A stretch of DNA of 64,000 nucleotides. Origin: Parcubacteria group bacterium. Lineage in GTDB: Bacteria > Patescibacteriota > Minisyncoccia > Moranbacterales > UBA2206. Numbering within the stretch: position 1 is the first letter of the stretch; the number at the start of each line of letters is the position of its first letter. The stretch lies in the NCBI GenBank assembly GCA_041674205.1, contig JBAYWF010000003.1:47221-111220 (forward strand). Direction: 5' to 3'. Positions 30,008 through 57,721 of the stretch are shown here, piece after piece. The notes beneath the pieces are model-generated. The model had not been told where the DNA came from, searched no databases, and saw nothing but the letters and a program-made list of their open reading frames with translations. The position numbers were made by a program, and so were the translations under genes.

Positions 30008-30118
30008 ATAGTCTCCATCTTAGCCTAGAATCGGAGAATAATCAAGGATTTGGGACAAGCGGATCGGAATAATCTTTAAAGCTTAACTTCCCTGCGCATA
30101 TTACGGTTTTTTTATCTT

Positions 30119-31219
30119 TTATTTTTCAACACGCTTTAAAACTTTGACAATCCCCGCATATGCGTCGACTTCTATCAAATCCCCATCATGCAGGACTTGG
30201 GTCGCATTCTTAGTGCCCACGATACAAGGAATATTGAATTCCCGAGATACGATGGCGGCGTGGGAAAGCATGCCACCCTGGTTGGTGACTATGGCAGCTG
30301 CTTTTTTGCAAGCCATCATCAATTCCGGTCCGGTTGTCTCGACAATCAATATTTGTCCGCTTGCCATCGAACCTATGATTTCAATCCTTTCATTCTCATC
30401 CACGTCAAGAATATCGCTTTTGAGAACCTTTGCCGTTCCGCGAACCCTGCCCTTATTCGCGATATGGCCAACGATAGTGTTTTCTCCTGTTTTATCTTCC
30501 ATATTCCGTATGATTTTTTTAGCATCTTCGCCAAATAAAATCCGCATTTTATTATCAAGGAAGATTGCGACATAAGCTGTCCGCCTATCCCCTAATTGCT
30601 TCTGAACGACTTTTTCACCTTTAAAAAGCAGCAGGACCTCTTCAATGGAATAAAGTTGCAGGTCATTGGACGGTACGGTAAATTTTTTTGAAAGCTTGGC
30701 TATAAGCCTATGGAAATAACTGCTTTTTTCAAAAGACATCCTATTGATGAATCCCTTGGCTCTCAATCTGAAATCTCCAAAATCACCGAAGTTTTTTTCA
30801 ATATTGTTTTGCGCCCCATCGGCATAAAAAAATTCAGTTTTGGAATAAAAGAAATAAAACTGGGCTACGAGTTCTAGAAATTTTTTAACATCCTCCTGTT
30901 TTATATTTTGAGTTTCGATTTCCAACGTGTTTTTGAAGAAAATTTCCGATCTTTCCATATATTCCTCGAAGTTTTTTCTAAATCGTCCTATATCCGGTTT
31001 GCTTTTATAAAATCTCCCGCCTTCGCTAAGGGCAAGTCCTAGTTTTTGTTTGGAAATATATCTATCAAGTGTTTCGCCATCGAAAACCGCCAACAGATCC
31101 ATTGATCGGTAAAACTCAGAAAACAGCTCGAGCCCTAAAAAATAAGGCGCGCTGACTTTCCCGCCAAAAAGCCTTTGATAATTATCAAGGTCTATTTTAT
31201 TAATATTTTTTTCAACCAT
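30119..31219 (-). CDS. PEP-utilising enzyme mobile (phosphohistidine swivel) domain protein with uncharacterised N-terminal domain
   Basis: C-terminal about 90 aa ILIVETTGPELMMACKKAAAIVTNQGGMLSHAAIVSREFNIPCIVGTKNATQVLHDGDLIEVDAYAGIV is a PEP-utiliser swivel domain with the phospho-carrier His; N-terminal about 270 aa unassigned; AT-rich. Confidence 0.7.
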   Translation of the reverse strand: MVEKNINKIDLDNYQRLFGGKVSAPYFLGLELFSEFYRSMDLLAVFDGETLDRYISKQKLGLALSEGGRFYKSKPDIGRFRKNFEEYMERSEIFFKNTLEIETQNIKQEDVKKFLELVAQFYFFYSKTEFFYADGAQNNIEKNFGDFGDFRLRAKGFINRMSFEKSSYFHRLIAKLSKKFTVPSNDLQLYSIEEVLLLFKGEKVVQKQLGDRRTAYVAIFLDNKMRILFGEDAKKIIRNMEDKTGENTIVGHIANKGRVRGTAKVLKSDILDVDENERIEIIGSMASGQILIVETTGPELMMACKKAAAIVTNQGGMLSHAAIVSREFNIPCIVGTKNATQVLHDGDLIEVDAYAGIVKVLKRVEK

Positions 31220-31257
31220 ATATGAATATCATTAAAAAAAATAATCGTTTTTGTATT

Positions 31258-31695
31258 TTAGTTGTTAGCATTTGCCAGATAATCGCCTATGATTATTTTA
31301 TGATCAAACGCAAGTTCGTCCGGCAAGCCATCCAGCGGAAACCATTCGTATCCAAGGGCGTCATCACCGGCTTTTGGACTGCCTGAAATTGTCACAGCAT
31401 ATGCCATATCTATGACTTGTTTGGGATGCCTATTCGGTTTGCCGTAAACCCCGATAAGCTTGATCGACTCGACTGCGACGCCTAATTCCTCTTTGACTTC
31501 CCTTATGACGGATTCCTCCGTCGATTCATCCCATTCCACATATCCGCCAGGCAAAGCCCAAAAACCTTTGAACGGATTCGCGCCTCTCTTGATAAATAAA
31601 ATCCTATCATCTTTTATGATGACCGCGTCAATCGAAACGCCTCGATTGTTGAAGCGACCGCATTCAGGACATTGTTCATCGTTTGATAATTCCAT
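31258..31695 (-). CDS. Nudix hydrolase with N-terminal CxxC zinc ribbon
   Basis: CPECGRF ... GFWALPGGYVEWDESTEESVIREVKEELGV Nudix box. Confidence 0.85.
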   Translation of the reverse strand: MELSNDEQCPECGRFNNRGVSIDAVIIKDDRILFIKRGANPFKGFWALPGGYVEWDESTEESVIREVKEELGVAVESIKLIGVYGKPNRHPKQVIDMAYAVTISGSPKAGDDALGYEWFPLDGLPDELAFDHKIIIGDYLANANN

Positions 31696-31726
31696 TTTGT
31701 TTAAATAAAAATTATAGATTCGCAGA

Positions 31727-31987
31727 TCACAGAAACCAGTAATTGATGATGCCGAACGTGGTTATAATGGTAAAAATAATCGTCGTAATCAAAATCCCGA
31801 TTTGCCCGGCTTGTTTCCAGGCCTTCCATGATGAATATAGCCAAAACGGCTGGGCAAGCAAATTCATTATTAATCCATATTCCGGAAATTTTAACGAAGT
31901 CGCTATTTGCGCGCCGATAGTCAATCCGGGAAGGGCGAATTGGGCGACCTTATTGAATAATTTTCCTTTTGTTGCCGCTTCGTTCAT
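31727..31987 (-). CDS. small hypothetical membrane protein
   Basis: two TM helices; start moved to MNEAATKG (31987) because an attC-like L'/R' motif occupies the upstream part of the longer ORF. Confidence 0.4.
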   Translation of the reverse strand: MNEAATKGKLFNKVAQFALPGLTIGAQIATSLKFPEYGLIMNLLAQPFWLYSSWKAWKQAGQIGILITTIIFTIITTFGIINYWFL

Positions 31988-32157
31988 AAAATTTTTTAAA
32001 AATATTTTGTCTGACGCATCTGCATATCTGAAGTTTAATCCCGACTTTATCACCCAAATCTTAACATGATTAGGGACGCTTGTTAATAGACTGATTTGGA
32101 ATATTCACCAGGCTACGGGATTAAATTCAGGTGGAGCCATTAAGAATTTTAGCTTTT

Positions 32158-32570
32158 TTATATTTCGTTTTCTATGTTTCTAAAATAATTTTTTGCCTCC
32201 AACAATGATAAATTTTCTACCATATTTGATTTATTGACCCATTTAGCTTTAACGATGTCTTTAGCCGTAGGATGGATATGTTCTTGCTCGGATTTGAAAA
32301 GAAACATATAAGTATCGATAATGACCGGATTATCGTTAGCTGCTCGTCTCTTGTAGTTGGGCAATGTTTTTATCAAGGTCAGCTTTTTAATTCCTGCTTC
32401 TTCATAAATTTCCCGTTTCGCCGCATCAATGATATCTTCACCTTTTTCAATGCCTCCTTTTGGAAATCCCAAGCATCAACATCTTTCATTAAAACTAAAA
32501 CGACTTGATTTTTATTATTTACAACTATTCCTCCAGCACTATCAATTATTTTATAGTCGGTTTCATTCAT
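32158..32570 (-). pseudogene. Nudix hydrolase interrupted by a -1 frameshift in a G-run
   Basis: ORFs 32379-32570 and 32158-32472 together encode ...VLVLMKDVDAW | GFPKGGIEKGEDIIDAAKREIYEEAGIK; restoring one G in the GGG run at about 32468-32470 gives a contiguous Nudix box. Confidence 0.7.
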
Positions 32571-32707
32571 AGAGATTGATAAAAATTTGGGTGAAAGAAA
32601 TTTATCCTCTTGATTATTATTTCCCGAAAGCGAAAAAAAGTTTAGATCAAGATGGATTCCTATAACCGCGTATACAGGTGTTATGCGCTGTCGTAATTTT
32701 TTTCGTG

Positions 32708-33157
32708 TTAAAGCAGCCCCTCATTGATTAACTGGAATGATGATTTGCCGGTATGCTTTTTCGTAATCACCTCGCCTGGGTTTTTCAAAATGTCTTTTAT
32801 ACGATCGACTTGTTTTGGTGAAGTATTGCGTGGGATGTCCTTAAAGGCAAAATATTTTATTTTATCAGCCTCTGGATTCAGAACGATTTCTCCGCCGATG
32901 ACTTTGCAGATGTATTGGAACACAATCTCATCCTTATCTGGCTTGCTGTATACGCCTGTTAGCCGCTCAACAACCGTGTTGAATCCAGTCTCTTCTTTTA
33001 CCTCTCGAACGACGCATTCCCAAGGTGTCTCACCATGTTCAAGGGTGCCTCCGGGGAGATTCCACAAATCGCAATCAGTCCTATGGCAAAATAAAATACG
33101 GTTTTCATCGTCGAATATAGCCGCGAATACGCCAATTGTGAAAGTCGGTTTGGACAT
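32708..33157 (-). CDS. Nudix hydrolase
   Basis: WNLPGGTLEHGETPWECVVREVKEETGF Nudix box. Confidence 0.85.
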   Translation of the reverse strand: MSKPTFTIGVFAAIFDDENRILFCHRTDCDLWNLPGGTLEHGETPWECVVREVKEETGFNTVVERLTGVYSKPDKDEIVFQYICKVIGGEIVLNPEADKIKYFAFKDIPRNTSPKQVDRIKDILKNPGEVITKKHTGKSSFQLINEGLL

Positions 33158-33190
33158 TGTTTATTAGATAAAAAATTACGATCACATACA

Positions 33191-33340
33191 ACGTATGCGC
33201 ATCATCCGAAGTTGCACCATGGATTATTGATTAAATTTGTTAATATCGCTTTACTTGATTATATCACTAAACTTGCCATTTCGTCAGCGCAATTTGAGAG
33301 AAGAAATTTTGCACTCCTTGAAATATAATTACGCAAAATT
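33191..33340 (-). repeat. conserved about 150-bp intergenic module (copy 1), shared with 39503-39651; carries a promoter-like TGACGA-18-TATAAT on the minus strand
   Basis: about 85-90% identity to the 39503-39651 copy over GAAGTTGC.C..TGGATTA.TTGATTA.TTTGTTAATATCGCTTTACTTGATTATATCACTAAACTTGCC.TTTCGTCAGCGCAATTTG. Confidence 0.8.
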
Positions 33341-33403
33341 CCTGACTCGTCGTAACTATCATTAAATCGAAATCTGGACGTAGCCTAATAAGCTGTTTTG
33401 TAA

Positions 33404-34024
33404 CTATTTATTTTTGGCGATTAAAAAAATAATTCCCGTGTTTACATATTCTTGTATGGGATTTTCTTCAAGGACAAAATCCAGTATCTCAAATTTATGC
33501 TCAGAAAGCATGTCTTTTATTTCTTTTTCGCAGTAGTAAGAATAGAATTTTTTTGCGTTATCATATCTGTCGTCCGTGATTACTTTTTCGCCACTGCCTT
33601 TTTTTAAATTTATATATAATACGCCACTGGCTTTAAGCACCCTTTTCATTTCCTTCAGTGCTTTTAAGGCATCAACTTTATTCAGATGCAATAATGTGGC
33701 GCTGCACCAGACGCCATCGAACGATTTGTTCTTAAAATTTAAATCTAACATATTCATCACATGGAACTTGGCATCTGGGACGGATGATCGGGCTTTATCG
33801 ATCATTTTTTGAGAAAGGTCGATTCCAGTCGTAACGTATTTGTTAGAAGCAAAAAAATCCGTATCGCGACCAAAGGCGCAACCGATATCCAAAACGCTTC
33901 CATTTTTAGGCAGATACGAAATGAATTTGTCGAGCCAATCTTTGTTTTGCAAGTTCGTCGTGTTTTTAATGTATTCGTCGACATTTTGATCGTAGAAATT
34001 AATAGTATTTTTAATATAATCCAT
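33404..34024 (-). CDS. class I SAM-dependent methyltransferase
   Basis: motif I VLDIGCAFGRD and methyltransferase type-11 spacing. Confidence 0.85.
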   Translation of the reverse strand: MDYIKNTINFYDQNVDEYIKNTTNLQNKDWLDKFISYLPKNGSVLDIGCAFGRDTDFFASNKYVTTGIDLSQKMIDKARSSVPDAKFHVMNMLDLNFKNKSFDGVWCSATLLHLNKVDALKALKEMKRVLKASGVLYINLKKGSGEKVITDDRYDNAKKFYSYYCEKEIKDMLSEHKFEILDFVLEENPIQEYVNTGIIFLIAKNK

Positions 34025-34393
34025 AGATAATTACAAAAAGTTTATTGAGCGGAACCAGATATGCGGCGTTATGCGATGTGGCAAAAGCCGACTCCGATAA
34101 GAAAAAATTGGAAGATTGATTAAAAGTCGGGCTCTCTCTTCAAGTTTTTGCTACTTCTTTATTATATATCAACAGAAGAAAAGGGCAAAAATTCGGGTAA
34201 AAAATGAAATTCAAGTCCAGAAAATACAAGAGGGAATTTCATTTTTTCCTCATATTCGGTGTTGTGCGATGTAAATTTTTTATCTCAATATTTATTGAAC
34301 TAAACTCTGTTTTATTACTAAGAAAATTTGATTTTTGTTTTGGATTTTGGGCAGATGGGTCAGGGGTGAATGCCCAAAATTCAAAACTCCTTA

Positions 34394-35026
34394 TTAAGTT
34401 TTGTTCATCAATCTCAATATTTCCTTTGGGTTATTTGCCACCCTTGTATTACCAACCATACTTTTATCAAGTCCCCAGCCATAATCTACTAATATAATAT
34501 TATCATCATTTATACCAGCTTTTTTTGAAACTTCGTAATCAATAGCTCTATCGCCTATGGATACGATTTCATCTGATGAATAGTTATTCTCTTGTATCAA
34601 ACCTATCATCATATCGCTCTTGCGGGTTTTTTGGTCTGCTCCGCAATAAATTTTTTCGAATAAAATTGTTAGGCCAAATTTTTCTATTTTAGGCAGAATT
34701 TCATTACTATGGGAAGCAGACACCAGATATAATTTATATTTTGTAGCAAGCTCCTTTATCACATTTTCTATATCCTCAAAAACACCATGCTCCATTTTGA
34801 CAATTTCTCTTAAATAAATAGAATTGGCTTCTTCAAAATCTTTCTCTTGGATGCCTAAATTTTTCAAACACTCTTTGTAATTATAGCCATAAACAACCCT
34901 AAATTCTTCCAATGTTTTTGGGCAAGAAACTTTGAAGCGCCTACAAATCATTTTATAAACTTCAAAGACGCTCACAAAAGAGTCTATTATCACACCGTCA
35001 TAATCAAATATAATCGCTTTTATCAT
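34394..35026 (-). CDS. HAD-IA family hydrolase (phosphatase)
   Basis: MIKAIIFDYDGVIIDS motif I DxD, motif II S/T, C-terminal GDRAIDYEVSKKAGI motif IV. Confidence 0.85.
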   Translation of the reverse strand: MIKAIIFDYDGVIIDSFVSVFEVYKMICRRFKVSCPKTLEEFRVVYGYNYKECLKNLGIQEKDFEEANSIYLREIVKMEHGVFEDIENVIKELATKYKLYLVSASHSNEILPKIEKFGLTILFEKIYCGADQKTRKSDMMIGLIQENNYSSDEIVSIGDRAIDYEVSKKAGINDDNIILVDYGWGLDKSMVGNTRVANNPKEILRLMNKT

Positions 35027-35167
35027 AAAAAATACAAATTAAATAGTTTACGTAGCCTCAGCGGAGAAAACACCTTTTCCCCCTCTATAAATAAATTAAA
35101 AATCAAATTTTCTGTCCTTAATTAAATCACAAATCTAAAAATTACCACCAAGATAAAAAAATTATTT

Positions 35168-35244
35168 CGCCGAACGTTTCGCAATATCCGACGTTCGCCT
35201 TAGCGAATGTGGCTTTAGCCCTTGCGGATATTGAGTGTTAGCTG
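35168..35244 (-). repeat. attC-like palindromic site (R'' CAGCTAAC - AC - L'' TCAATATCCGC ... L' GCGAATATCCGAC-like ... R' GTTCGGCG)
   Basis: 9-bp L''/L' complementarity CAATATCCG/CGGATATTG, inner palindrome CGAACGT/ACGTTCG; lies between the IMPase-3 and HAD cassettes. Confidence 0.55.
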
Positions 35245-35329
35245 ATGTATTAAAAATTCTTTTCGCTTTTGTCGTTAGACAAAAGATTTAATTGGGGCAA
35301 ATTTATTTTTTTAATCCTTCCGCTGTGTT

Positions 35330-36157
35330 TTATTTCTTTACAATTCCCAACAACTGCTTAACAATTTTAGCGTTACCTGCAACATAATCTCCTTCATAAA
35401 CATCGCATTCTTTTCCGTCTAAATTAGTCATTATCGCACCGGCTTCAGCGGCAATAAGGCTGCCGGCTGCAACATCCCATGGTTTTTGTTTCAATCTGAT
35501 TAAACCGTCAATTCGACCGCATGCCAAATAACAAAACTCGGCAGCCATTCCACCTTTTCCAAATGTTTCATCAACAATGTGGGTGCTGTCGTAAAATCCA
35601 AAATATTTAACATTGGGAATTGAATTCATTATTCTTTTATCAAGTCCACCAATTTCATCATCTTCACTTCCAGGATAAGTTGAGTAAGTTATAATTGCTT
35701 TTGATAAATCATAGGCTTTGCTTGTGTGTATAGGTTCATTGTTTAAGGTTGCGCCCTTTCCTTTCTCAGCAACAAACATTTCATCTGTTTTTGGTAAATA
35801 GATGACTCCCAAAATAATTTCGCCTTTATATTCTAGCCCAATGGACACCGAAAAAGTATTTCGCTTAGCAATGTAGTTATTTGTACCATCAATTGGATCA
35901 ATAATCCATTTATATTCTGAAATTAACACACTTTTACCTAGTTCTTCACCTAAAAAAGCATGCTTGGGAAAAGATACTTTAATTATTTCAACAATTTTTT
36001 GTTCTGATGCTCTGTCTATTTTTGTTGTCGGATTAGCATGTACGTCATATTGAATTTCGTCAGATTTTACATTGTCAATATTTTCCATCAAAAATCTTCC
36101 AGCTTCTTTGGCTGCTTTTATTGCGGTTTGTCTGAGATTGTTTTCGTTGTTTGTCAT
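35330..36157 (-). CDS. inositol monophosphatase family protein (third, divergent paralog)
   Basis: WIIDPIDGTNNYIAKRNTFSVSIGL metal-binding motif; 275 aa. Confidence 0.85.
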   Translation of the reverse strand: MTNNENNLRQTAIKAAKEAGRFLMENIDNVKSDEIQYDVHANPTTKIDRASEQKIVEIIKVSFPKHAFLGEELGKSVLISEYKWIIDPIDGTNNYIAKRNTFSVSIGLEYKGEIILGVIYLPKTDEMFVAEKGKGATLNNEPIHTSKAYDLSKAIITYSTYPGSEDDEIGGLDKRIMNSIPNVKYFGFYDSTHIVDETFGKGGMAAEFCYLACGRIDGLIRLKQKPWDVAAGSLIAAEAGAIMTNLDGKECDVYEGDYVAGNAKIVKQLLGIVKK

Positions 36158-36228
36158 GGCCTTGGATTAAAAAAATAAATTTGCCTAGATTGAATGCCCG
36201 CTAAGGCCGAAAATAATTTTTTAATATT

Positions 36229-36357
36229 TCAGCTAACGTATCCAAATATCTGAAGTTTGCTGGAGTGTAACGAAAGCAAATTTGGGAGAGAAAATTTTTC
36301 TTACCTTTGAAATTTAAAAGTGAAAAATTTTTGAACCAGATATTTGGTGTTGTCTGA
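36229..36357 (-). repeat. attC-like site (R'' CAGACAAC - AC - L'' CCAAATATCTG - 78-nt centre - L' CAGATATTTGG - ATAC - R' GTTAGCTG)
   Basis: perfect 11-bp L''/L' inverted repeat about 85 nt apart; R boxes fit RYYYAAC/GTTRRRY loosely; stop codon of upstream Nudix 12 nt before R''. Confidence 0.65.
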
Positions 36358-36386
36358 TGTTTTGTCTGCCGTCGTTTTTAAAATCA

Positions 36387-36833
36387 CTAAGCCGCCCAGC
36401 CGAACTCGCCATAATGCACATTCTTGTTAATATTCTCTAGGGCAAGTTTTACTTCTGGTAAAATGTTGTTCGGAAGACCGTCCATATTATACCATTTAAG
36501 CTCGTCACATTTATCAAGTTCCATATTGGTAATATTACCAGCCCATTTTTCAGTACGAAGATAAATATCAAAATATTCGCGATCAGATGCTAATCGATGC
36601 ATAACATGAACCACCTCGAGGTCTTCCGGACTTACCTTAATCCCAGCTTCTTCACTGGCTTCTCGGATAATGCATTGTTTCGTTGTTTCACCACCATCAA
36701 GATGTCCTGCCACCAAGCTATAATTGCCGTCTTGATAGCCAGTGTTGAAGCGTCTGAGAAGTAAAACTTGCCCGTCCTTAATCAGCACAAGGTAGGCGGC
36801 GACGTATGGTTTAAATCTTTCTTTATCAGACAT
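36387..36833 (-). CDS. Nudix hydrolase
   Basis: GNYSLVAGHLDGGETTKQCIIREASEEAGIK Nudix box. Confidence 0.85.
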   Translation of the reverse strand: MSDKERFKPYVAAYLVLIKDGQVLLLRRFNTGYQDGNYSLVAGHLDGGETTKQCIIREASEEAGIKVSPEDLEVVHVMHRLASDREYFDIYLRTEKWAGNITNMELDKCDELKWYNMDGLPNNILPEVKLALENINKNVHYGEFGWAA

Positions 36834-36869
36834 AGTAATGTTGGATTATTAATTAGGCTGACAAAATTT

Positions 36870-37094
36870 CAGATAACGATTAAGAATATCTGAAGTCCTG
36901 CGCTTTTGCTTCTATGCACAAAATCTTAAATATTCCTGACATTTTGTTAATTTTATTATACCCCAAATTACAGCAAAACTGAAAAGCGCGGGATCTGCCT
37001 GCCTGCCTGCCGGTAGGCAGGGGAGAGAAAAATCTATCCCCCTTTTAGTTTTAATTGTGGTAAATTTTTAGAACCTCATATTTGGTGTTCTGCG
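36870..37094 (-). repeat. attC-like site (degenerate; R'' CGCAGAAC ... R' GTTATCTG) with internal GC hairpin CCTGCC/GGCAGG
   Basis: same ACATC-R''-AC-L'' ... L'-spacer-R'-AAA layout as neighbouring sites but weaker L pairing. Confidence 0.45.
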
Positions 37095-37102
37095 ATGTTT
37101 AA

Positions 37103-37624
37103 TTAAGCGGCTTTTAACAACCGCAACATTTTTGTAGGCCATTCAGTATTGCCCCGTTCTATTTCTTCGTGGAAAAATTTTATCATGAGCTGTTTTGGCT
37201 CGTCGGAAAAATCACAATGCTCAATTTCAGGCCAAACTTCTTTATACCACAATCCAATATTGTCATGGCGTAAATTGCACGCACCGCCGTTTGGATCGCG
37301 TTCAATAAACAAAATCCGATTTATATGGTTAGTGACTGAAGCACCAAGACACTGGATGCAAGGCTCAAGCGTACTGTAAAGAGAAATAGCCTTACCATGC
37401 TTCCAAGCTTCACTCAAAAGCTGACTATTTTTTATTATCAAACTATTTTCAGCATGATTGACGAAGGATTTTTGTTTATTGATTTCGTTGCCAGCAGTGT
37501 CAACGATTTTTTCATCAATAGCCAAAACAGCACCCACGGGATAATTGCCAGCCTTGTAAGTTTCACGGGCAATACTGATGGCCGCCTCAAAACATTGTTT
37601 ATCAAATAGACTTAATTCTTTCAT
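37103..37624 (-). CDS. CMP/dCMP-type zinc deaminase family protein
   Basis: HAENSLI (HxE) and TLEPCIQC (PCxxC) zinc-binding motifs of the cytidine/deoxycytidylate deaminase fold. Confidence 0.75.
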   Translation of the reverse strand: MKELSLFDKQCFEAAISIARETYKAGNYPVGAVLAIDEKIVDTAGNEINKQKSFVNHAENSLIIKNSQLLSEAWKHGKAISLYSTLEPCIQCLGASVTNHINRILFIERDPNGGACNLRHDNIGLWYKEVWPEIEHCDFSDEPKQLMIKFFHEEIERGNTEWPTKMLRLLKAA

Positions 37625-37691
37625 GAGATGTAGCTTAATTCAATTTCACTTAACGTTTAGGAATATCAGAAGTTTTTGGCTCTCTTTATTA

Positions 37692-38297
37692 TTATTTGGG
37701 ACACTTTTCGTAGAATACCTTAAAACTTTTTTCTTCGCCATATTTCGTACTCATGCCATTGAGCAATTTTTGAAGGTCTATATCGAAAAATTTTCTATGC
37801 GAATAAGCAGGGTCGCCAAGCGTAACAACAACATTTTTATTTTTTACAGTGACAGAATCTACCACGCAGCTATGGCCATAATTGACCCCGCTTCCAGGTT
37901 TAGCGTAAGCAGCCATGTTAAACGAAACAATAATGTCATTACCAGCTTTTAAGTTTTCGCATAGAAAATTTTTTATGTCGCCTATCTTCGAAGGGTAATG
38001 ACGCTCAACAGCCAGAGATATTTTATGCTTCTTCAAAAATTGCGGTATTTTATAGACCCACGTGCCATAGCCAAGTCTGTCTTGCGGCAGTTTTCCCGCA
38101 ACTTTCATTTTTATATTGAACAATCGTTGATCTTCTGGGGCAATAACAACGCCCAAATCTTTGGCCATTTCATCCTGCGAAATCAAATTCAACCCGCGGC
38201 GCAACATTACCCATTGAATACAGCAAGGCAAGCAACAATATTTTTGCTGGGTAAGCGGGATATAACTTGGCATTATGCGGACTTTATTTGTTGTCAT
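37692..38297 (-). CDS. putative papain-fold cysteine peptidase (C39-like)
   Basis: candidate catalytic Cys in LTQQKYCCLPCCIQWV (Gln upstream as oxyanion residue) and His in NYGHSCVVDSV, resembling the C39 HFVVL motif; weak. Confidence 0.35.
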   Translation of the reverse strand: MTTNKVRIMPSYIPLTQQKYCCLPCCIQWVMLRRGLNLISQDEMAKDLGVVIAPEDQRLFNIKMKVAGKLPQDRLGYGTWVYKIPQFLKKHKISLAVERHYPSKIGDIKNFLCENLKAGNDIIVSFNMAAYAKPGSGVNYGHSCVVDSVTVKNKNVVVTLGDPAYSHRKFFDIDLQKLLNGMSTKYGEEKSFKVFYEKCPK

Positions 38298-38394
38298 AAA
38301 ATTCCCTGGATAATAATTTCAAAATCTGAAGCGTGCAGCATTTTAATGGGACGTAGTGGGATCAGATTACCATATCCTGCGATACAAGCCTATT

Positions 38395-38799
38395 TTAACT
38401 CTCAACTTCTCGCAGGAACTCTTTTAGAGGTTCTACTATGTCGGTCAAATCGACATATTCAATGATTTTATCAGCGACCCCCTTGGCAGTGTCCCGAAGC
38501 TGGACCCCTTTATTGATTATTATGATGATCTTTTTGCCGGCACCAAAGGCGATTCCCGCCTCAAGAGCCCGTCCGGTAGATGAGGTTGATAGGTCGATCA
38601 ATAAAGCATCGCACTCAAGGACTTCTTCCTTGGCGCGATCCATCAATTCCCGTGGATCATAAAACATCTTTTGATAATTTTCAACGTCACGGATAAAACA
38701 AAAGTCATCGAACCCGGCTTCTTTTACCAAGTTGCACAAGTTTTCTATTTCGGATTTATTTTCACCCTCTTTGAAGGGGGCGGTGATAAAAATTTTCAT
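38395..38799 (-). CDS. nucleoside 2-deoxyribosyltransferase-like (PF05014/DUF4406-type Rossmann) protein
   Basis: N-terminal KIFITAPF (cf. KIYLAGPF) and C-terminal DALLIDLSTSSTGRALEAGIAFGAGKKII with the conserved Glu. Confidence 0.6.
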   Translation of the reverse strand: MKIFITAPFKEGENKSEIENLCNLVKEAGFDDFCFIRDVENYQKMFYDPRELMDRAKEEVLECDALLIDLSTSSTGRALEAGIAFGAGKKIIIIINKGVQLRDTAKGVADKIIEYVDLTDIVEPLKEFLREVES

Positions 38800-38827
38800 A
38801 GCGAGAGAGTTAAAAATAGACTTATTT

Positions 38828-38916
38828 CACATAACGTTTCTCGATATCCGACGTTTCAATGAAGTGAAACGAATTGAAATGTGGCTTTAGTCCTCGCGGA
38901 TATTGAGTGTTAGATG
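38828..38916 (-). repeat. attC-like site (R'' CATCTAAC with embedded TAA stop - AC - L'' TCAATATCCGCG ... inner hairpin CGTTTCA/TGAAACG ... L' CGGATATCGA - GAAAC - R' GTTATGTG)
   Basis: R'' is a perfect RYYYAAC; L''/L' 9-bp complementarity; stop codon of Nudix 38910-39488 lies inside R''. Confidence 0.65.
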
Positions 38917-39461
38917 ATGTTTTTGTGTGACACTATTCCACTTAGATATAATAACAATGGCATCAGAGAAGTGCCATCACTAATCTCATTATTAGCGATC
39001 AGTTCTTTTACTTCACTTAATGAAAGCCAATGGATTTCCTTGACTTCGTCTGTGTCGATTTCGGCCTGCTCGCCAGTTTCAACATTACCTAAAATTATGT
39101 GAACATTTTGATTCGACATTCCGTTCGAAGGATTGTAAGAGTAAAGAAGTTTTAATGCCCTCGCTTTAAAACCAACTTCCTCCATTACTTCTCGTTCAGC
39201 GGCTAATAAAATATCTTCACCATTTTCAACGCCACCAGCAGGCAATTCCCATTCAATCTTTTGCGTGGTATAGCGCAAAGACTTGATAAAACAAATTTCG
39301 CTTTTGGCGTTTAGCAATAATACGGCTATTGACTCCTTCGGGTAATCAAGTTGATGATATTTTTCTATAATTTTTCCAGAAGGCATTAAAACTTTGTCGA
39401 TATATAGATTTATCCATTGGCTTTCATAGATTGGTTTTCGATCTAATCGTTTTGGTAGCAT
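38910..39461 (-). CDS. Nudix hydrolase (ADP-ribose pyrophosphatase-like)
   Basis: WELPAGGVENGEDILLAAEREVMEEVGFK Nudix box; start set to ATG MLPKRL (39461); longer ORF begins with GTG at 39488. Confidence 0.85.
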   Translation of the reverse strand: MLPKRLDRKPIYESQWINLYIDKVLMPSGKIIEKYHQLDYPKESIAVLLLNAKSEICFIKSLRYTTQKIEWELPAGGVENGEDILLAAEREVMEEVGFKARALKLLYSYNPSNGMSNQNVHIILGNVETGEQAEIDTDEVKEIHWLSLSEVKELIANNEISDGTSLMPLLLYLSGIVSHKNII

Positions 39462-39496
39462 ATATTTATAATTTAGAGAGTGTCGCACAAAAATTT

Positions 39497-39681
39497 CATC
39501 TAACGTATCGGCACATGCGAAGTTGCGCCGTGGATTAATTGATTATTTTGTTAATATCGCTTTACTTGATTATATCACTAAACTTGCCGTTTCGTCAGCG
39601 CAATTTGGGTTAAAAAAAATTTGCATTCCTTATAAAATCTAATTGCGCAAATTTTTTGAACCGCATGTGCCGTGTTATCGG
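39497..39681 (-). repeat. attC-like site containing the conserved promoter module (R'' CCGATAAC - AC - L'' GGCACATGCG ... L' CGCATGTGCC - GATAC - R' GTTAGATG)
   Basis: perfect 10-bp L''/L' complementarity with a sequence unlike the L boxes of other sites (covariation); R' is a perfect GTTRRRY. Confidence 0.65.
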
Positions 39682-39708
39682 ATGTAAAATTTTTTTAATT
39701 CACTTTTA

Positions 39709-40515
39709 TCAAATAGATTGGGATTTAACAACCTCCAATAACTTTGCATGCAGGGCTGGAGACGACGCAAGAAAGGTGAAATTGTCTTGTGGTTGAGAAA
39801 GGGCATTTGAATAATCAATCGTATTTCCGAAAAAATCTGTATAAATTCCGCCCGCTTCCTCAATAATTATCTGCTGGGCAACATTATCCCATATTTTGCT
39901 CGTGCGATTTAAAAAAGCACCATAATTTCCTTTGGCTACCATAGCAATATCAAAAACACTATTACTGCTTCTTAAGTTTCTAATATTCAAAACTATTTCA
40001 GCTAGCAGCGCACACTCATCTCTTGTAAACTTCGGATTTTCTTGGTGACCATCAATTCCATACGCTACAAGCGCTTTTTTCAAATCGCCTTCTTTGGTAA
40101 TGCAGATTTTTTCGGAATTACAATATGCTCCTTGCCCTTTCTCGGCCACATAAATTTCGGAAAAGTTTGGCAAAGCTAGTCCACCAGCAATCGGAACATT
40201 ATTTTTTAACAATCCAAGCATTATCCCGTACAGCGGCGTTCCGTTGGCGAAGTTGCTAGTGCCGTCAATTGGATCAATGACCCATGTAAAAACTGACTTT
40301 TTATCAATCACTCCAGCTTCCTCATCAATGATGTTATGCTCCGGAAATTTGGCTTGGATTTTTCCAATCAATAATTTACCGATTTCTAAGTCAGTTTCCG
40401 TAAGTACCTGATTATTATCATCTTCCTTGGTGATGCCAGCAACTTTGCCAAAACTTTTTCTTGCAACGTCAGAAGCTTCTTTCAGAGATTGAGTAATGAA
40501 ATCCTTGTATTCCAT
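39709..40515 (-). CDS. inositol monophosphatase family protein, cassette-borne paralog of 20545-21366
   Basis: WVIDPIDGTSNFANGTPLYGIMLGL; lower GC than the core copy; flanked by 35-bp inverted repeats 39672-39708 / 40521-40556. Confidence 0.9.
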   Translation of the reverse strand: MEYKDFITQSLKEASDVARKSFGKVAGITKEDDNNQVLTETDLEIGKLLIGKIQAKFPEHNIIDEEAGVIDKKSVFTWVIDPIDGTSNFANGTPLYGIMLGLLKNNVPIAGGLALPNFSEIYVAEKGQGAYCNSEKICITKEGDLKKALVAYGIDGHQENPKFTRDECALLAEIVLNIRNLRSSNSVFDIAMVAKGNYGAFLNRTSKIWDNVAQQIIIEEAGGIYTDFFGNTIDYSNALSQPQDNFTFLASSPALHAKLLEVVKSQSI

Positions 40516-40548
40516 AATGTTAAAAAAGTGAATTAAAAAAATTTTATT

Positions 40549-40633
40549 TCCGATAACTCGTTTATGCGCGAAATTTGTTTCGTATAATGCTCGATAATTT
40601 GTTTGTTATGCTAAATTATTGCGCGTTATCCGG
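40549..40633 (-). repeat. attC/attI-like boundary site between murJ and first cassette (CCGGATAAC ... GTTATCGG)
   Basis: R''-like CCGGATAAC-GC-GCAATAATTT and R' GAGTTATCGG separated by about 70 nt, immediately after the murJ stop. Confidence 0.4.
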
Positions 40634-40689
40634 ATTTATTTTAATCCCTAAAACTTGCCTGCCGCTTTTTTCTAGAGTATGTACATCTG

Positions 40690-45867: not shown

Positions 45868-45946
45868 AGCCTAATTATACCACCAAAAACGGCTTGGGAC
45901 TATGCGCGCAAAAACCGAAACCAGGAATTCCGGCCTATGCCGGCTC

Positions 45947-52454: not shown

Positions 52455-52575
52455 AATTTTACCCTTAAGATTTTCCGCTTTTTATGATTCCATTATACCA
52501 CAAACCCCCGGAATTGATAAAAGACACCGCGACCCGCGCGATGCCTTTTTTTTGTTGCCATATATATATGAGCTC

Positions 52576-54382: not shown

Positions 54383-55069
54383 TTAATCCAGCTCACCTTT
54401 AGTTTCCAAGCCGAATCTGCCTCTTAGATATTCAATGAAAACATCCTCCTTGCCAATATCATCATAATATTCAACAGCAATCACATAATGTTGCCAACCT
54501 CCGACCCAAAAACGCATTATGATTCCCATCCTGGAATATTCAATGCTGCCCATATCCTCTTCGAATTGCCCTTCGAGAAGTCCTATTGTTTCATGATTTT
54601 TGAATTTTTCCGACATGATTTGCAAATATGAAATGGAAACACGACCTTTTGGATTGTTGTCTGATAAGTTTTCTGGCACTCCAAACAGATCCTCCCTCCT
54701 TTTTCTTATTTTATACACATCATATCCGTGCAATTGCATTGATGATTCTTTTCTATACAAAGAAACCTCGATGCCAATCTTCTTGAAAAAATCAATAAGC
54801 ATTTGGATATTAATTTCTCGCGAATTATATCTGACACCTATTATATCTTTTCCAAAATTATTCAATTTTTCTACAAAGAAAATTTCATAGATACTTTTTG
54901 GCATCCTCATATTATCCGGTACCCAACAAAGAAAAACATCATGAATAAATTTGCCCAGGGATCCATACTCCTCTATAATCTCCGCCTTGACCGACAAAAC
55001 CTCGAAACCTTCCGGAGCAAATGCCTCACTCCAAAATCCAATTTTATTTGATTCAGTACATATCTTCAT
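54383..55069 (-). CDS. hypothetical protein
   Basis: 228-aa ORF, no motif. Confidence 0.45.
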   Translation of the reverse strand: MKICTESNKIGFWSEAFAPEGFEVLSVKAEIIEEYGSLGKFIHDVFLCWVPDNMRMPKSIYEIFFVEKLNNFGKDIIGVRYNSREINIQMLIDFFKKIGIEVSLYRKESSMQLHGYDVYKIRKRREDLFGVPENLSDNNPKGRVSISYLQIMSEKFKNHETIGLLEGQFEEDMGSIEYSRMGIIMRFWVGGWQHYVIAVEYYDDIGKEDVFIEYLRGRFGLETKGELD

Positions 55070-55190
55070 ACGTTTTCTCCCGATGTGTTAGTTATTATCC
55101 TCTATTCAGAGCTTACTTGACCGGTATTAGATTGTCAAAGGATAACGGGGTCAGGAGCCTTTTTTATGGGCAGGTAATCAGGGTCAGGAT

Positions 55191-55325
55191 CTTTTTAAGC
55201 CGTCCTCCTTGTTTTAGCGTTGAAATCAGACCTAGTTTTTTAACTATCTTTTTTATCCAACTATCATCCCCGAATGGCCGGTTTTTTTAATGGAATATCC
55301 GGTTGTTTCAATTTTTTCTTATTCA
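55191..55325. repeat. about 135-bp direct repeat, copy A (partner at 57831-57965)
   Basis: about 92% identity over ...TTTTAAGCCGTCC.CCTTGTTTTAGCGTTGAAATCAGACCTAGTTTTT.A.CTATCTTTTTTATCCAACTATCAT...GGAATATCCGGTTGTTTCAATTTTTTCTT. Confidence 0.85.
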
Positions 55326-55528
55326 CCTTTTTGTTTTTTGCATAATTTTTATTTGAATAAAAGGCACCTGACCCCATTGTTTCGGAAGATTCAATCTTAG
55401 GAGCTAACCTTCGGGATTAGAGCTATATACATTTGACAGAAAAAGACTGGAAGTGTTACATTACGCTTAATATTACTTTCTTATTAACACGCTATGCCTT
55501 GTTTAACCCGTGTCCTAAAAAATAAAAT

Positions 55529-56569: not shown

Positions 56570-57034
56570 ATGGCAAACTACATAAAATGGATCCGGGAAA
56601 GAGTTGGTCACGACCCGATAATACTAAACGCTTCTGCAGCCTTTGTTCTGAATGATGAAAATCAAGTTCTTTTATTGCGCCGCTCTGATCGCAATGAAGA
56701 AGTTTGGGGAGTGCCAGGCGGCATGATGGAAATAGGTGAATCAGCGGAGGATACGATGAAACGAGAAGTATTGGAAGAAACAGGGCTAAACGTAAAAGTT
56801 GAAAAATTTCTTGGAGCCTATACTAAAGACAGGTTTGACTCTTACCCGAATGGGGACAGGGCATATGTGATCCTTTTTGTTTTTGTGTGCCGCGTGATCG
56901 ATGGGGCACCTATCGCTAATAATGAAGAGGCGGCGGAACTGCGCTACTTTGATCCAGATAATTTTCCATCAACCTTCAGACATAAACAAGTTTTGGAAGA
57001 TTATAAATCCAACTTAAGCGGAATAATCAGATAA
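56570..57034 (+). CDS. Nudix hydrolase
   Basis: WGVPGGMMEIGESAEDTMKREVLEETGL Nudix box. Confidence 0.85.
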   Translation: MANYIKWIRERVGHDPIILNASAAFVLNDENQVLLLRRSDRNEEVWGVPGGMMEIGESAEDTMKREVLEETGLNVKVEKFLGAYTKDRFDSYPNGDRAYVILFVFVCRVIDGAPIANNEEAAELRYFDPDNFPSTFRHKQVLEDYKSNLSGIIR

Positions 57035-57112: not shown

Positions 57113-57721
57113 TTAAAATGATTGTTCTTGCTTGGTACGGTAGACTTCTTCCATCCTAGCCGGACCATTGATTCGCAAGAAAACTTCATAAGCTCCCTGT
57201 GGAATAAATTCTTTCCACGATTCTCCGCCTTCCATAACCTTTTTTATGATTCTTGCATTATGCAGTTTAAAAGGAGGAGAAACGGATTCATAATTTCGTC
57301 CTAGGAGCTCTGGAAATATCTTACCTCTCAACGCGTCAATACTTGCGTCGCCATCTTTTTTTTCTGGCCGTACAATCATGAATTCCGCAGGAGGATATCT
57401 CACGTTGAATTCTTTATCAAAGTACGGTCTTTTTGAAATATCACAGCTGATACGATGGTTCAGCTTACGACCTACTGTCCAGGCGTCCCACATCTCCTTT
57501 ACCTCATTGGGTGTAAAAGGATTTTTGCCTGGCGCATAAGATGTTTTTTCCGATGCTTTAATGTACTCCTCCCACCTTCCGATATCGAACCATTCTGGTT
57601 TTGGCGTGTTGTATACTACGCATATAGTAACAAATTGCCATTTATTGAGAATGGTCTCTACCGTACAAACATGGGCAATCGTGGGAGGCTGAAAGCGTCC
57701 CTGAAACAAAGCGTATTTCAT
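57113..57721 (-). CDS. cytidylyltransferase-like nucleotidyltransferase (NMN/NaMN adenylyltransferase NadM-like)
   Basis: N-terminal ALFQGRFQPPTIAH fits the GxFxPxHxGH nucleotidyltransferase motif of NadM-type NMNATs. Confidence 0.55.
   Translation of the reverse strand: MKYALFQGRFQPPTIAHVCTVETILNKWQFVTICVVYNTPKPEWFDIGRWEEYIKASEKTSYAPGKNPFTPNEVKEMWDAWTVGRKLNHRISCDISKRPYFDKEFNVRYPPAEFMIVRPEKKDGDASIDALRGKIFPELLGRNYESVSPPFKLHNARIIKKVMEGGESWKEFIPQGAYEVFLRINGPARMEEVYRTKQEQSF

Follow-up and report, generated by a model that had tools for sequence, protein, structure and literature searches.

The intergenic repeat that occurs twice in the 64-kb stretch of DNA analysed here (the window) is probably an attC-like CPR cassette site whose stem-b loop holds an outward sigma-70-type promoter for the next cassette. 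The host of the array is a Parcubacteria/Moranbacteria (CPR) genome, and the bacteria whose mobile cassettes are separated by such sites are uncultivated and live in groundwater. Both copies lie inside the cassette array and none is found elsewhere in the 64 kb. Copy B is a functional-looking site of the first cassette, and copy A is a recombination-dead relic in which the promoter part has been kept.

A cassette array in a low-GC island

The array is located in an island of 33-40% GC between murJ and lepA, flanked by DNA of 45-50% GC. These two genes are only 45 nt apart in a close relative without the island (GCA_030679995.1). The island comprises a PEP-utilising gene fragment and the cassette array, and includes the following features.

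30047..40689, minus strand: low-GC island of 10.6 kb, between murJ and lepA
39709..40515, minus strand: inositol-monophosphatase (IMPase) gene, first cassette, owner of site B (PF00459, E 2.6e-49)
39498..39685, minus strand: copy B, intact attC-like site that closes the first cassette (IMPase) at its 3' end
38911..39462, minus strand: NUDIX hydrolase gene of 183 aa, second cassette, downstream of copy B (PF00293, E 1.2e-18)
38833..38911, minus strand: short attC-like site with a 10-bp L stem and 1 nt / 4 nt geometry, promoter core absent
36871..37098, minus strand: long attC-like site whose L stem is imperfect and whose core differs
36235..36351, minus strand: attC-like site that has hairpin a, CCCAAATT and ACTTC in common with copy B
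35173..35239, minus strand: short attC-like site, from the site detector
34161..34272, minus strand: truncated site with R''-L'', hairpin a and a core, L'-R' arm absent
33186..33345, minus strand: copy A, relic site behind a methyltransferase gene
32708..33157, minus strand: NUDIX hydrolase gene downstream of copy A (PF00293, E 9.9e-21)

The intergenic repeats had been read as attC-like sites of a cassette array, and their R boxes, L stem and crossover at GTT bear this out. In the stretch from 31.9 to 40.6 kb, clean sites number at least 4 and decayed ones about 5, and they are co-oriented. A search of the whole window for tyrosine recombinase homologues returned none at E up to 1e-5, and the window array is therefore of the CALIN type (two or more co-oriented attC, no integrase nearby), provided that one counts the sites as attC. 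Enzymes of nucleotide metabolism (NUDIX, IMPase, deaminase, HAD) abound in the cassettes. The IMPase gene lies between 34-nt inverted repeats at 40524-40557 and 39674-39707. For the NUDIX gene at 38.9k, the public gene call has the start at ATG 39462 instead of GTG 39488.

The two copies of the repeat

Alignment of 39502-39651 with 33190-33337 by blastn gave 85.6% identity over 153 aligned nt, in agreement with the earlier claim of about 150 bp shared by two sites at 85-90% identity. A repeat finder reported 87% over 104 ungapped nt, with a start-to-start spacing of 6311 nt, and in the MAFFT alignment the cores of copies A and B differ by one mismatch (CAAATTGCGCTGACGAAAyGGCAAGTTTAGTGATATAATCAAGTAAAGCGATATTAACAAA). 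Searches of the 64-kb window with nhmmer and blastn returned these two copies only (E 5e-53 and 1.4e-52; next match E 0.6).

What the original prediction described as a 150-bp module inserted in two sites is actually the central part of one site family of about 190 nt, and corresponds to hairpin a, stem b and the stem-b loop. Its statement that the other sites lack the module holds for the core sequence, but both module flanks are present in the site at 36235-36351, and other cores, also with TATAAT, occupy the corresponding position in the sites at 36871-37098 and 34161-34272. The site at 36235-36351, which gave a weak nhmmer match to the left flank, is devoid of the core because its stem-b loop is merely 15 nt long. 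The core of 36871-37098 contains GGTATAAT (36955-36962) followed by ATTAACAAAAT, and that of 34161-34272 contains TTGCCC-16-TATAAT at 34188-34161. A five-way MAFFT alignment of the long sites of the window was too noisy for use.

Copy B aligns over its full length with 45 other unique copies. In copy A, hairpin a and stem b with its loop are kept along with an L'-R' arm of variant sequence, unrelated sequence stands in place of the R''-L'' arm, and there is no fold (z +0.93). The NUDIX proteins encoded downstream of the two copies share the NUDIX box only, and the upstream genes are unrelated; since the two proteins are only 40% identical over 40 aa, duplication of a cassette does not account for the repeat. 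Neither of two small ORFs in the module is conserved, be it the 6-codon MASLVI on the gene strand or a 7-codon ORF on the opposite strand; copy B has ACG instead of ATG, and both were dropped.

Architecture of the site

Copy B is laid out as ACATC, R'', L'', hairpin a, stem b with its loop, L', spacer and R'.

39674..39685, minus strand: ACATC and R'' (CGATAAC, RYYYAAC type)
39661..39672, minus strand: L'' arm (CGGCACATGCGG), pairs with L' at 39509-39520
39614..39657, minus strand: hairpin a (AAAAAATTTGC...GCAAATTTTTT), last bases of the loop AAGGAAT
39523..39603, minus strand: stem b, in which TTGCGCTG at 39596-39603 pairs with CGGCGCAA at 39523-39530
39498..39508, minus strand: spacer ATAC and R' (GTTAGAT), crossover point at GTT

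The fold of copy B is a long hairpin that includes a three-way junction (z -4.4 for the minus strand, -4.0 for the plus strand), and the site detector recovered this copy with 11 bp in the L stem. In the consensus fold the L stem has 12 contiguous pairs and is bulge-free; an example of an arm pattern for the site family is AACACGGCACATGCGGTTC ... CTTCGCATGTGCCGA. Conservation across copies reaches 100% for ACATC, 99.6% for AACAC, and 0.95-1.0 for the arms and stem b; none of the 46 unique copies departs from AAC and GTT. The stem of hairpin a covaries among copies (UA/CG 23:14, UA/GC 20:16, GC/UA/AU 37:4:2). Stem b consists of 8 consensus pairs around an unstructured loop of about 65 nt, which forms the core of the module described originally. 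Other site types preserve stem b via different sequences, e.g. TTCGCTTTTC/GAAAAGCGAA, and the short sites have the same architecture with a loop of 4-15 nt at the stem-b position. Site length ranges from 49 to about 297 nt at constant arm geometry, with a branched terminal structure.

The boxes RYYYAAC and GTTRRRY recur in 126 co-oriented sites. The spacer between R and L boxes is strongly asymmetric (A vs GATAC/ATAC): 98 of the 112 unique sites have 1 nt on the R''-L'' arm and 3-5 nt on the L'-R' arm. The two or three extrahelical bases that define the R''-L'' arm in PMC2727003 were not found with a detector that disallowed bulges. The four variable R'' bases of copy B are complementary to the 5' end of its own cassette (GTTATCGG from 40552), and AGAT of its R' is complementary to R'' of the next site at 38.9k. 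A search of the window at gathering thresholds, and of 16 related loci, against Rfam 15 (group II introns and riboswitches included) matched tRNA only, and no credible Rfam match was obtained for 31-41 kb at E up to 10.

Distribution of the site family and cassette boundaries

Members of the site family, of about 170-195 nt, come from 3 reference MAGs and from about 70 metagenome contigs, with whole-site homologues at loci L001, L003 and L004 and at about 70 metagenome loci. Matches at L002, L058, L061, L064 and L069 are due to chance, as is the single GC-rich match from a viral contig scan. The copies are about 80-100% identical overall. They sit behind at least 42 different upstream genes and ahead of at least 36 different downstream contexts. 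The analogy originally drawn with VCRs, where one site type accompanies many cassettes, holds. The conserved block extends from ACATC-R'' through R', and the flanks are unrelated. Over 405 kb of loci, 126 sites are co-oriented and 16 are reverse.

In 25 of 43 pairs, R'' of the next site is a perfect complement of the 4 nt that follow GTT; for R'' of the same site the count is 4 of 43, and 6.8% would be expected at random. Similarity ends 0 nt past GTT in 26 of the 33 pairs with a common left flank. With an upstream flank of 100% identity, identity of the site is likewise 100% and similarity stops at GTT (L010/L019); with a downstream flank of 100% identity, identity of the site is only 85-87%. 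The site is co-inherited with the upstream gene, so that the promoter would be part of cassette N and would drive cassette N+1. The idea that a cassette carries its own promoter has to be modified accordingly: the element would serve the following cassette.

An inverted-cassette model, in which the site is owned by the downstream gene, was considered because the extra spacer bases are on the "wrong" arm. The complementarity test is unable to separate it from the upstream-owner model; co-inheritance favours the upstream gene, although informative pairs are few. Flank-linkage counts (52 upstream-only pairs vs 1 downstream-only) were discarded as inflated by a shared 3'-UTR element, and site identity in those pairs was 0.82 against a background of 0.80.

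A second conserved structured element is frequent in the 3' UTR directly upstream of the site. A coding reading of the 125-nt 3'-UTR element was ruled out on account of compensatory pair changes in its stem.

A promoter-like element in the stem-b loop

The loop of both window copies harbors a promoter-like element on the gene strand.

39593..39598, minus strand: -35-like CTGACG of copy B, 4/6 matches, overlaps the 5' strand of stem b
39569..39577, minus strand: extended -10 TGATATAAT of copy B, TATAAT at 39574-39569
33258..33287, minus strand: promoter-like element of copy A, CTGACG at 33282-33287 and TGATATAAT at 33258-33266

Each copy has CTGACG, an 18-nt spacer and TGATATAAT, an extended -10 with TG two bases 5' of TATAAT. 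A promoter scan placed the minus-strand -10 hexamers at 39574-39569 and 33263-33258 with an 18-nt spacer, exactly as first reported. The promoter consensus score is 10/12 overall (perfect -10, -35 4/6, spacer 18). The element points, as had been proposed, to downstream genes that are both NUDIX, about 100 nt from ATG 39462 for copy B and about 95 nt from ATG 33157 for copy A. Transcription is predicted to start about 7 nt past TATAAT, at about 39561-39565 (B) and near 33251 (A).

Conservation of the element was assessed in 61 copies, collected with a metagenome pattern that forced the -35 region, left the -10 free, and samples promoter-destroyed, arm-intact copies with bias. TGATATAAT is present in 50 of these 61 copies, and T1, A2 and T6 are preserved in 61/61, all 11 variants included. 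The mean majority fraction is 0.986 for the extended -10 vs 0.838 for the rest of the loop, and the 9-nt -10 window tops all 31 other loop windows (their maximum 0.92). Several columns just after the -10 vary freely (0.37-0.63). The stretch of about 40 nt after the -10 is also fairly conserved (0.84), including TAATCAATAATCC, which is common to a second module type; a promoter alone does not account for this conservation. The second module type has TAAAAT only and no convincing -35. As the whole site is highly conserved, the -10 conservation could be partly hitch-hiking, in a family that would be young and fast-spreading.

The word TGNTATAAT occurs 11 times in the window vs 2.5 +/- 1.75 expected (4.4-fold), and 0/100 shuffles reach that number. 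The gene strand has nine of these occurrences; several of the 11 are intergenic, upstream of genes or tRNA. A host promoter-like site upstream of a tRNA reads TTGACG-16-TGCTATAAT, and reverse-oriented cassette genes in L012, L035 and L073 have TTGACR-17-TATACT. Promoter-like matches as such are not enriched across the region (41 vs 33 +/- 6, promoter scan). In 44 of 51 contexts, a same-strand ORF has its start within 250 nt of R'. Among independent long site types, TAnAAT is found in the forward direction in 9/13 cases and in reverse in 2/13, and L036 has the same arms with a different loop, still with TGTGATATAAT. In about 10 copies the arms are broken or hybrid and the promoter part is intact.

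From these sequence features we infer that the site has promoter activity, and most likely it supplies an outward promoter for the next cassette. The proposed unit would be a site at the cassette 3' end with an R box, a 1 nt vs 4 nt spacer, a 12-bp L stem and a three-way junction, whose stem-b loop promoter (CTGACG-18 nt-TGATATAAT) would face out of the site, toward the next cassette. RNA polymerase would start about 7 nt past TATAAT and transcribe any cassette recombined in downstream. Arrays might thus be expressed from promoters travelling in recombination sites, beyond a platform promoter alone. A point against this mechanism is that the 5' UTR would include the L'-R' arm.

Alternative explanations for the conserved loop

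The core might be functionless, with a chance TATAAT that merely looks conserved in a young family spreading by site-specific recombination. The overall identity of the copies (about 80-100%), the conservation of arms and stem b at 0.95-1.0 and the regional count of promoter-like matches agree with this, and AT-rich horizontally acquired DNA often mimics -10 elements (PMC11014356). Still, we consider it unlikely: the columns after the -10 are free when the extended -10 is at 0.986, all 11 variants spare T1, A2 and T6, unrelated cores at the same position hold TAnAAT mostly in the forward direction, and TGNTATAAT is a rare, enriched word in the genome. It is distinctly unlikely that the loop is instead a recognition or architecture element of recombination (for the XerA-like recombinase, a host factor or strand choice) with an incidental likeness to a promoter. 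Most sites in the same arrays (49-130 nt) are loop-free yet have the cassette-boundary signature, copies with dead arms retain the core, and the best-conserved unforced stretch is exactly TGnTATAAT. These facts must be set against the need for another asymmetry determinant in sites without extrahelical bases, the tendency of module sites to be near the recombinase gene, and the conservation of the loop past the -10 (TTAACAAATTTAATCAATAATCC), which is partly common to the second module type.

Hairpin a and stem b covary, and for two consensus pairs (25/180 and 101/171) the gene strand gives G-U where the opposite strand would give A-C, as would fit a functional RNA kept by selection, be it a leader, a small RNA starting from the -10 or a structured 3' UTR. 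The conserved region past the -10 and the structured 3'-UTR element often found directly upstream point the same way, and such an RNA would be partly compatible with the promoter explanation. As the explanation of what selection keeps, it is nevertheless very unlikely, given a loop devoid of consensus structure, strands that fold about equally well, boundaries that are recombination boxes and crossover points instead of transcript ends, and the outcome of the Rfam search even at E up to 10. The poorest prospects are those of a MITE-like non-autonomous transposon with an outward promoter that inserts between genes, which we regard as highly improbable. Small size, terminal inverted repeats, many copies in many genomes behind unrelated genes and an outward promoter-like motif are all features of the repeat that a MITE could have. 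The original prediction had taken copies at many unrelated loci as the sign of a generic MITE; the copies found are in co-oriented arrays, with both window copies inside one, and there is no signal of target-site duplication, as flanking direct repeats number 18 vs 18.4, 12 vs 9.7 and 4 vs 4.5 in a permuted control. Moreover, the copies are co-oriented with neighbouring sites of the same R/L geometry (126 vs 16), their boundary bases obey the integron rule, and they adjoin a divergent tyrosine recombinase.

Comparison with known systems

In integron theory, cassettes are promoterless and their expression declines with distance from Pc. A site that doubles as a conserved promoter would, if true, be a simple answer to how long arrays remain expressed, and expression units would be reshuffled along with the sites.

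The sites described here resemble VCRs and other attC sites of sedentary chromosomal integrons in being imperfect palindromes that combine RYYYAAC...GTTRRRY boxes with an L stem and a variable, branched terminal structure. They also share with VCR attC sites the presence of one site per cassette ORF, behind the ORF, the crossover at GTT, the complementarity of the cassette 5' end to its own R'', and a high-identity site type common to many unrelated cassettes. In most attC sites G follows AAC on the bottom strand (PMC2727003), and the same is true of the present sites. Extrahelical bases, which give strand choice in classical attC sites (PMC2727003), are absent from R''-L'' here; the asymmetry is that of a 1-nt vs 4-nt spacer, on the opposite arm, whereas the spacer of classical attC sites is roughly symmetric. 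Further differences from VCR attC sites are the conserved three-way junction, the CCCAAATT and ACTTC motifs, the promoter-like element in the terminal loop, the CPR host, and an associated recombinase that lacks the IntI-specific domain.

Internal promoters are known from Vibrionaceae superintegrons, where they drive downstream cassettes independently of Pc (PMC11014356), and one transcription start has been mapped inside the attC of cassette F2 (Blanco et al. 2024, PMC11014356). Those promoters are specific to individual cassettes, within whose bodies they lie, and may in part be due to spurious AT-rich initiation (PMC11014356), whereas here one extended -10 motif lies within the site itself, in about 60 copies and behind at least 42 genes. 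The group IIC-attC intron offers another precedent, as its Pout is an outward sigma-70-type promoter for the following cassette, inside attC (Leon et al. 2010, PMC3001079). That intron is a retro-element of about 2 kb in the bottom strand, whereas the present promoter would be in the native loop of the site, of about 65 nt, and there is no intron RNA (no Rfam group II match) and no reverse transcriptase here.

Neisseria Correia elements are likewise short palindromic intergenic repeats able to create promoters for their neighbours; they transpose with TA duplications and are not known from recombinase-linked co-oriented arrays. The literature that we searched, whose incomplete coverage leaves room for an earlier description, contained no account of such arrays in these phyla.

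Recombinase and attI-like sequence

Related arrays are associated with a divergent tyrosine recombinase that, judged from profile and pairwise alignments, is XerA-like and lacks the IntI-specific domain. The recombinase homologue is upstream of and divergent from the module at 16/16 loci holding one, at a distance of 0.47-3.3 kb. The array-linked recombinases are 273-280 aa long and have the SAM-like N-domain PF13495. On TIGR02249 the recombinase scores 224 bits vs a cut-off of 265, split in two stretches, and it aligns to IntI4 / VchIntIA in two blocks that skip residues 182-240. In the VchIntIA structure (2a3v) these residues correspond to the region of the IntI-specific additional domain. 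The best full-length matches are of the XerA type (NF040815 above cut-off; PDB 4a8e, E 1.3e-44). The array-linked recombinases are thus like IntI (VchIntIA, PDB 2a3v) in being tyrosine recombinases with an IntI-type SAM-like N-domain, encoded divergently from the array, and unlike it in their best matches, which are to the archaeal XerA type (PDB 4a8e, 5hxy).

We tentatively raise the possibility that CPR bacteria of the Parcubacteria/Moranbacteria have a distinct integron lineage, characterized by a XerA-like recombinase without the IntI-specific domain, bulge-free three-way-junction attC-like sites and, for some site families, evolution into portable promoters. In such a lineage expression would come from promoters that move with the sites, often in the first one to three cassettes, in place of a fixed Pc, and each such cassette would bring a switch for its downstream neighbour. 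The IntI-specific domain is the part of the integrase that reads extrahelical bases. Here, a natural variant pairs a recombinase without this domain with sites without extrahelical bases, a pairing that makes testable which features cassette recombination and strand choice truly require. If true, this would extend integron-like gene capture to reduced CPR genomes.

The sequence AATTCGCATATAAnnAGTTATCGGAAAT is conserved before the first cassette in L001, L005, L012 and L073, where it adjoins the recombinase gene. A similar sequence in the window, a candidate attI, is found at the murJ-proximal start of the array.

40546..40572, minus strand: attI-like sequence TTCGCGCATAAACGAGTTATCGGAAAT, which resembles AATTCGCATATAAnnAGTTATCGGAAAT

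A cassette array between murJ and lepA

In the close relative GCA_030679995.1 (Candidatus Moranbacteria; locus L080, 9956-10000), murJ and lepA are separated by 45 nt, and the window therefore carries a 10.6-kb island at this position. The entire array and a PEP-utilising-domain gene are absent from that relative. The LepA of the window is MFA7209100.1, and its 90% cluster mates are 'Candidatus Moranbacteria'. The following features were located.

30047-40689, the island
30119-31219, PEP-utilising-domain gene
31258-40515, minus strand, array of about 13 small co-oriented genes
33190-33337, minus strand, copy A of the module (relic)
39498-39685, minus strand, copy B (complete site)
36235-36351, site with the same architecture and a stem-b loop of 15 nt
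36871-37098, 34161-34272, 32.6k, 32.0k and 37.6k, decayed sites, as is copy A
40546-40572, sequence resembling the attI-like sequence of related loci

The array genes include five NUDIX and two IMPase genes, and one apiece for a HAD protein, a methyltransferase, a deaminase, a C39-like peptidase and an Ndt-like protein. The GC content of the array is 33-38%, compared with 45-50% in its flanks. Its intergenic regions contain imperfect palindromes that read, on the gene strand, ACATC-RYYY-AAC-A-[L'']...[L']-nnAC-GTT-RRRY-GAAAT. Four clean sites of the array were picked up by a site detector (AAC, 1 nt, stem of at least 9 bp, 3-5 nt, GTT), and they share a 1-nt/4-nt geometry. No recombinase gene is encoded within the 64-kb window.

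A 34-nt inverted repeat, 40524-40557/39674-39707, lies on both sides of the first cassette (IMPase) and extends the R box. This IMPase gene is 74% identical over 300 nt (39805-40104/20656-20955) to the core-genome IMPase gene (20545-21366), which is also present in GCA_030679995.1; the pair may hint at recruitment of cassette genes from the host lineage.

Two copies of a non-coding unit

The original prediction described two look-alike stretches of about 150 bp, 6 kb apart, each with cTGACGa, an 18-nt spacer and TATAAT on the minus strand and a Nudix gene downstream. This observation stands, and its interpretation is supported in part and extended here. Using blastn, 39502-39651 aligns with 33190-33337 at 85.6% identity over 153 nt, and a repeat finder gives 104 ungapped nt at 87% with a copy spacing of 6311 nt. 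MAFFT alignment revealed near-identity in the core (CAAATTGCGCTGACGAAAyGGCAAGTTTAGTGATATAATCAAGTAAAGCGATATTAACAAA) and about 75-80% identity in the outer parts. The promoter scan returned the same hexamers at the same coordinates, CTGACG, 18-nt spacer and TATAAT at 39598-39569 and 33287-33258 (minus strand), and TG precedes the -10 in both copies, giving the extended -10 TGATATAAT. A count of copies by nhmmer and blastn found these two and no third in the 64-kb window. The downstream genes are NUDIX hydrolases in both cases, their proteins having only the NUDIX box in common (40% over 40 aa), and the upstream genes, a methyltransferase and an inositol monophosphatase, are unrelated. The repeat is thus a discrete non-coding unit, and its being part of a duplicated gene is ruled out.

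The module is the inner part of an attC-like site family

A 20-mer of the core led to three reference MAGs, L001, L003 and L004 (L002 being a chance match), and a degenerate pattern with the -35 region fixed and the -10 left free led to 74 metagenome loci, about 70 of them genuine. These loci have no DNA in common with the window beyond the site. The conserved block of the alignment runs from ACATC-R'' to R', with conservation collapsing beyond both ends. Therefore the 150 bp, which had been taken for a module inside attC-like sites, form the interior of an attC-like site that belongs to a single family with a length of about 170-195 nt; the attC-like character itself holds. The family occurs in at least 42 different upstream and at least 36 different downstream gene contexts.

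The consensus fold of 46 unique copies comprises an L stem of 12 bp without bulges, a hairpin a with compensatory changes (UA/CG 23:14, UA/GC 20:16, GC/UA/AU 37:4:2) and an 8-bp stem b. The core is the loop enclosed by stem b, unstructured and about 65 nt long. The same architecture (GGTTC, hairpin a, CCCAAATT, stem b, ACTTC) is found in other site types of the arrays, with different stem sequences and stem-b loops of 4 nt to more than 80 nt. A stable fold is predicted for copy B (z -4.4 and -4.0) but not for copy A (z +0.93), in which the R''-L'' arm is missing and L' is a variant.

Two invariant pairs of the consensus, columns 25/180 and 101/171, are G-U on the gene strand (46/46 and 45/46) and A-C mismatches on the complementary strand (window 39661/39520 region). 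The end of the hairpin-a loop has a conserved, Shine-Dalgarno-like AAGGWGT. Some loci (L070 805, L032, L078 657, L017/L051; L025/L050, L038, L048, L031) harbor hybrid sites, with L'' of one type opposite L' of another, or sites cut short on one side immediately beyond the promoter part, which suggests homologous exchange in the shared central region or site decay in inactive arrays.

Behavior as cassette recombination sites

The detector, applied to related loci totalling 405 kb, found 126 sites co-oriented with the module versus 16 in the opposite orientation. Of 43 pairs of consecutive sites, 25 show perfect complementarity between the 4 variable nt that follow GTT and the 4 nt preceding AAC in the next site; with R'' of the same site, 4 of 43 do (random expectation 6.8%). 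Complementarity with the next site's R'' is the integron cassette rule. Among copies with a common left flank, similarity ends 0 nt past GTT in 26 of 33 pairs. L010 and L019 are 100% identical in left flank and site, with unrelated right flanks, while L042/L045 and L073/L074 have 100% identical right flanks and sites of only 85-87% identity. These few informative pairs show that site and upstream gene are inherited together. No target-site duplication was found around the site copies.

A tyrosine recombinase homologue is present in 16 loci (about ten distinct contexts), in all 16 upstream of the module and divergent from it, at 0.47-3.3 kb. An attI-like sequence is conserved at the start of the first cassette in related loci; in the window, copy B belongs to the first cassette past the sequence that resembles it. 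Among 13 loci whose upstream flank extends for 3.5 kb or more, 9 have the module no farther than 3.3 kb from the recombinase gene, a redundant and biased estimate. This position would fit a role as the array's effective promoter.

The integrase-proximal cassettes of L012 (2700-2760), L035 (4540-4590) and L073 (10900-10950) contain a small reverse-oriented gene with a canonical promoter of its own, TTGACR-17-TATACT; the module-bearing site directly follows this gene and faces the rest of the array.

Probable promoter function of the core

Judged from its sequence, the core probably functions as a promoter, a reading we favor with some reserve. It combines a perfect extended -10 with a -35 matching at 4/6 positions at 18 nt. 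TGATATAAT occurs in 50 of 61 real copies, the -10 being unforced by the search pattern, and the 11 variants (TGGTATAAT, TTATATAAT, TGATACAAT, TGATATGAT, TGATACTAT, TGCTATAAT, TAATATAAT) all keep T1, A2 and T6. The whole site family is highly conserved, which counts against this reading. The mean majority fraction is 0.986 in the 9-nt extended -10 window, above all of the other 31 loop windows (maximum 0.92, mean 0.838). The 9 nt directly after it are the most variable stretch of the loop, although the loop after the -10 is also fairly conserved. Also against a promoter, the -35 is weak and was itself forced by the search pattern, and promoter-like matches are not enriched in the region (41 vs 33 +/- 6).

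TGNTATAAT occurs 11 times in the window versus 2.5 +/- 1.75 expected (11 reached in 0 of 100 shuffles), 9 times on the gene strand, and comparison of coordinates with the ORF list places five of the nine non-module matches between genes, ahead of a co-oriented gene or the tRNA. TTGACG-16-TGCTATAAT stands upstream of the tRNA and TTGACR-17-TATACT upstream of the reverse-oriented cassette genes of L012, L035 and L073, so the sigma-70 consensus appears valid in these organisms. A co-oriented ORF starts within 250 nt past R' in 44 of 51 contexts. Other long site types have different cores in the same place, with TAnAAT forward in 9/13 versus reverse in 2/13; examples in the window are TTGCCC-16-TATAAT (34161-34272) and GGTATAAT (36871-37098). 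L036 retains TGTGATATAAT in a different loop between the same arms, and in some ten copies, copy A among them, the arms are truncated or hybrid but the promoter part is kept.

Further intergenic gene-strand TGNTATAAT sites are found at 45874-45882, 52492-52500, 10646-10654, 18099-18107 and 18310-18318. One such site lies only 7 nt upstream of start codon 45867, where the mRNA could be leaderless.

Comparison with integrons

Among the closest known systems are the VCR-type attC sites of chromosomal integrons. The array-linked recombinases (273-280 aa) pass the NCBIfam XerA/'integron integrase' model (227 bits, cut-off 220) and do not pass TIGR02249 (224, cut-off 265, with the match split in two). 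Their residues 15-184 and 201-277 align to 9-181 and 241-317 of VchIntIA (2a3v); since the alignment skips between these blocks, about 43 aa are missing in the region of the IntI-specific domain, which we take to lie within the skipped part of 2a3v. No extrahelical bases were found on the R''-L'' arm, in the consensus fold or in the bulge-free detector sites, and the sole asymmetry is a spacer of 1 nt versus 4 nt on the other arm. Sites without extrahelical bases would fit a recombinase without the IntI-specific domain. Extrahelical bases on this arm belong to the attC definition (PMC2727003).

The other closest counterparts are gene-less cassettes with promoters, with occasional start sites inside attC (PMC11014356), and group IIC-attC introns, which bring outward promoters (PMC3001079). 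A native, conserved promoter in an attC-like site family was not found in the searchable literature, whose coverage is incomplete. The variant with a putative promoter in the site occurs in a CPR integron-like system whose recombinase lacks the IntI-specific domain and whose sites lack extrahelical bases.

In one context from seven samples (L017, L018, L040, L051, L059, L063, L071), the recombinase gene is split over two frames (145 + 99 aa) and is probably a pseudogene.

Other conserved elements

A second conserved non-coding element, about 125 nt long, is found after the stop codon of some cassette genes and ahead of the R'' in the site that follows (window 34273-34393, minus strand; L005 6513-6640; also L017, L027, L066, L009, L016, L011 and L054). 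It comprises TAAGGAGTTTTGA and a 9-bp hairpin with the conserved loop ATTCACCCCTRACCCCTCT, followed by an A-rich tract. Its stem covaries (TTTTGGGCA/TGCCCAAAA, AAAAAAGGA/TCCTTTTTT, TTTTGGCCA/TGGCCAAAA), and it is joined to unrelated genes exactly at their stop codons. An Rfam search with this element gave no match.

Outside the array, a plus-strand attC-like palindrome (55144-55381; 15-bp L stem, 1-nt/4-nt geometry) is located near a NUDIX gene (56570-57034). A 140-nt repeat (55192-55332/57832-57973, 91-94% identity) precedes two minus-strand ORFs without Pfam match (54383-55069 and 57113-57721) at a distance of about 110-120 nt. Finally, an ORF harbors four copies of a 42-nt tandem repeat (58252-58458, 70-98% identity), and an AbiEii-family toxin gene is found at 59814-60512.
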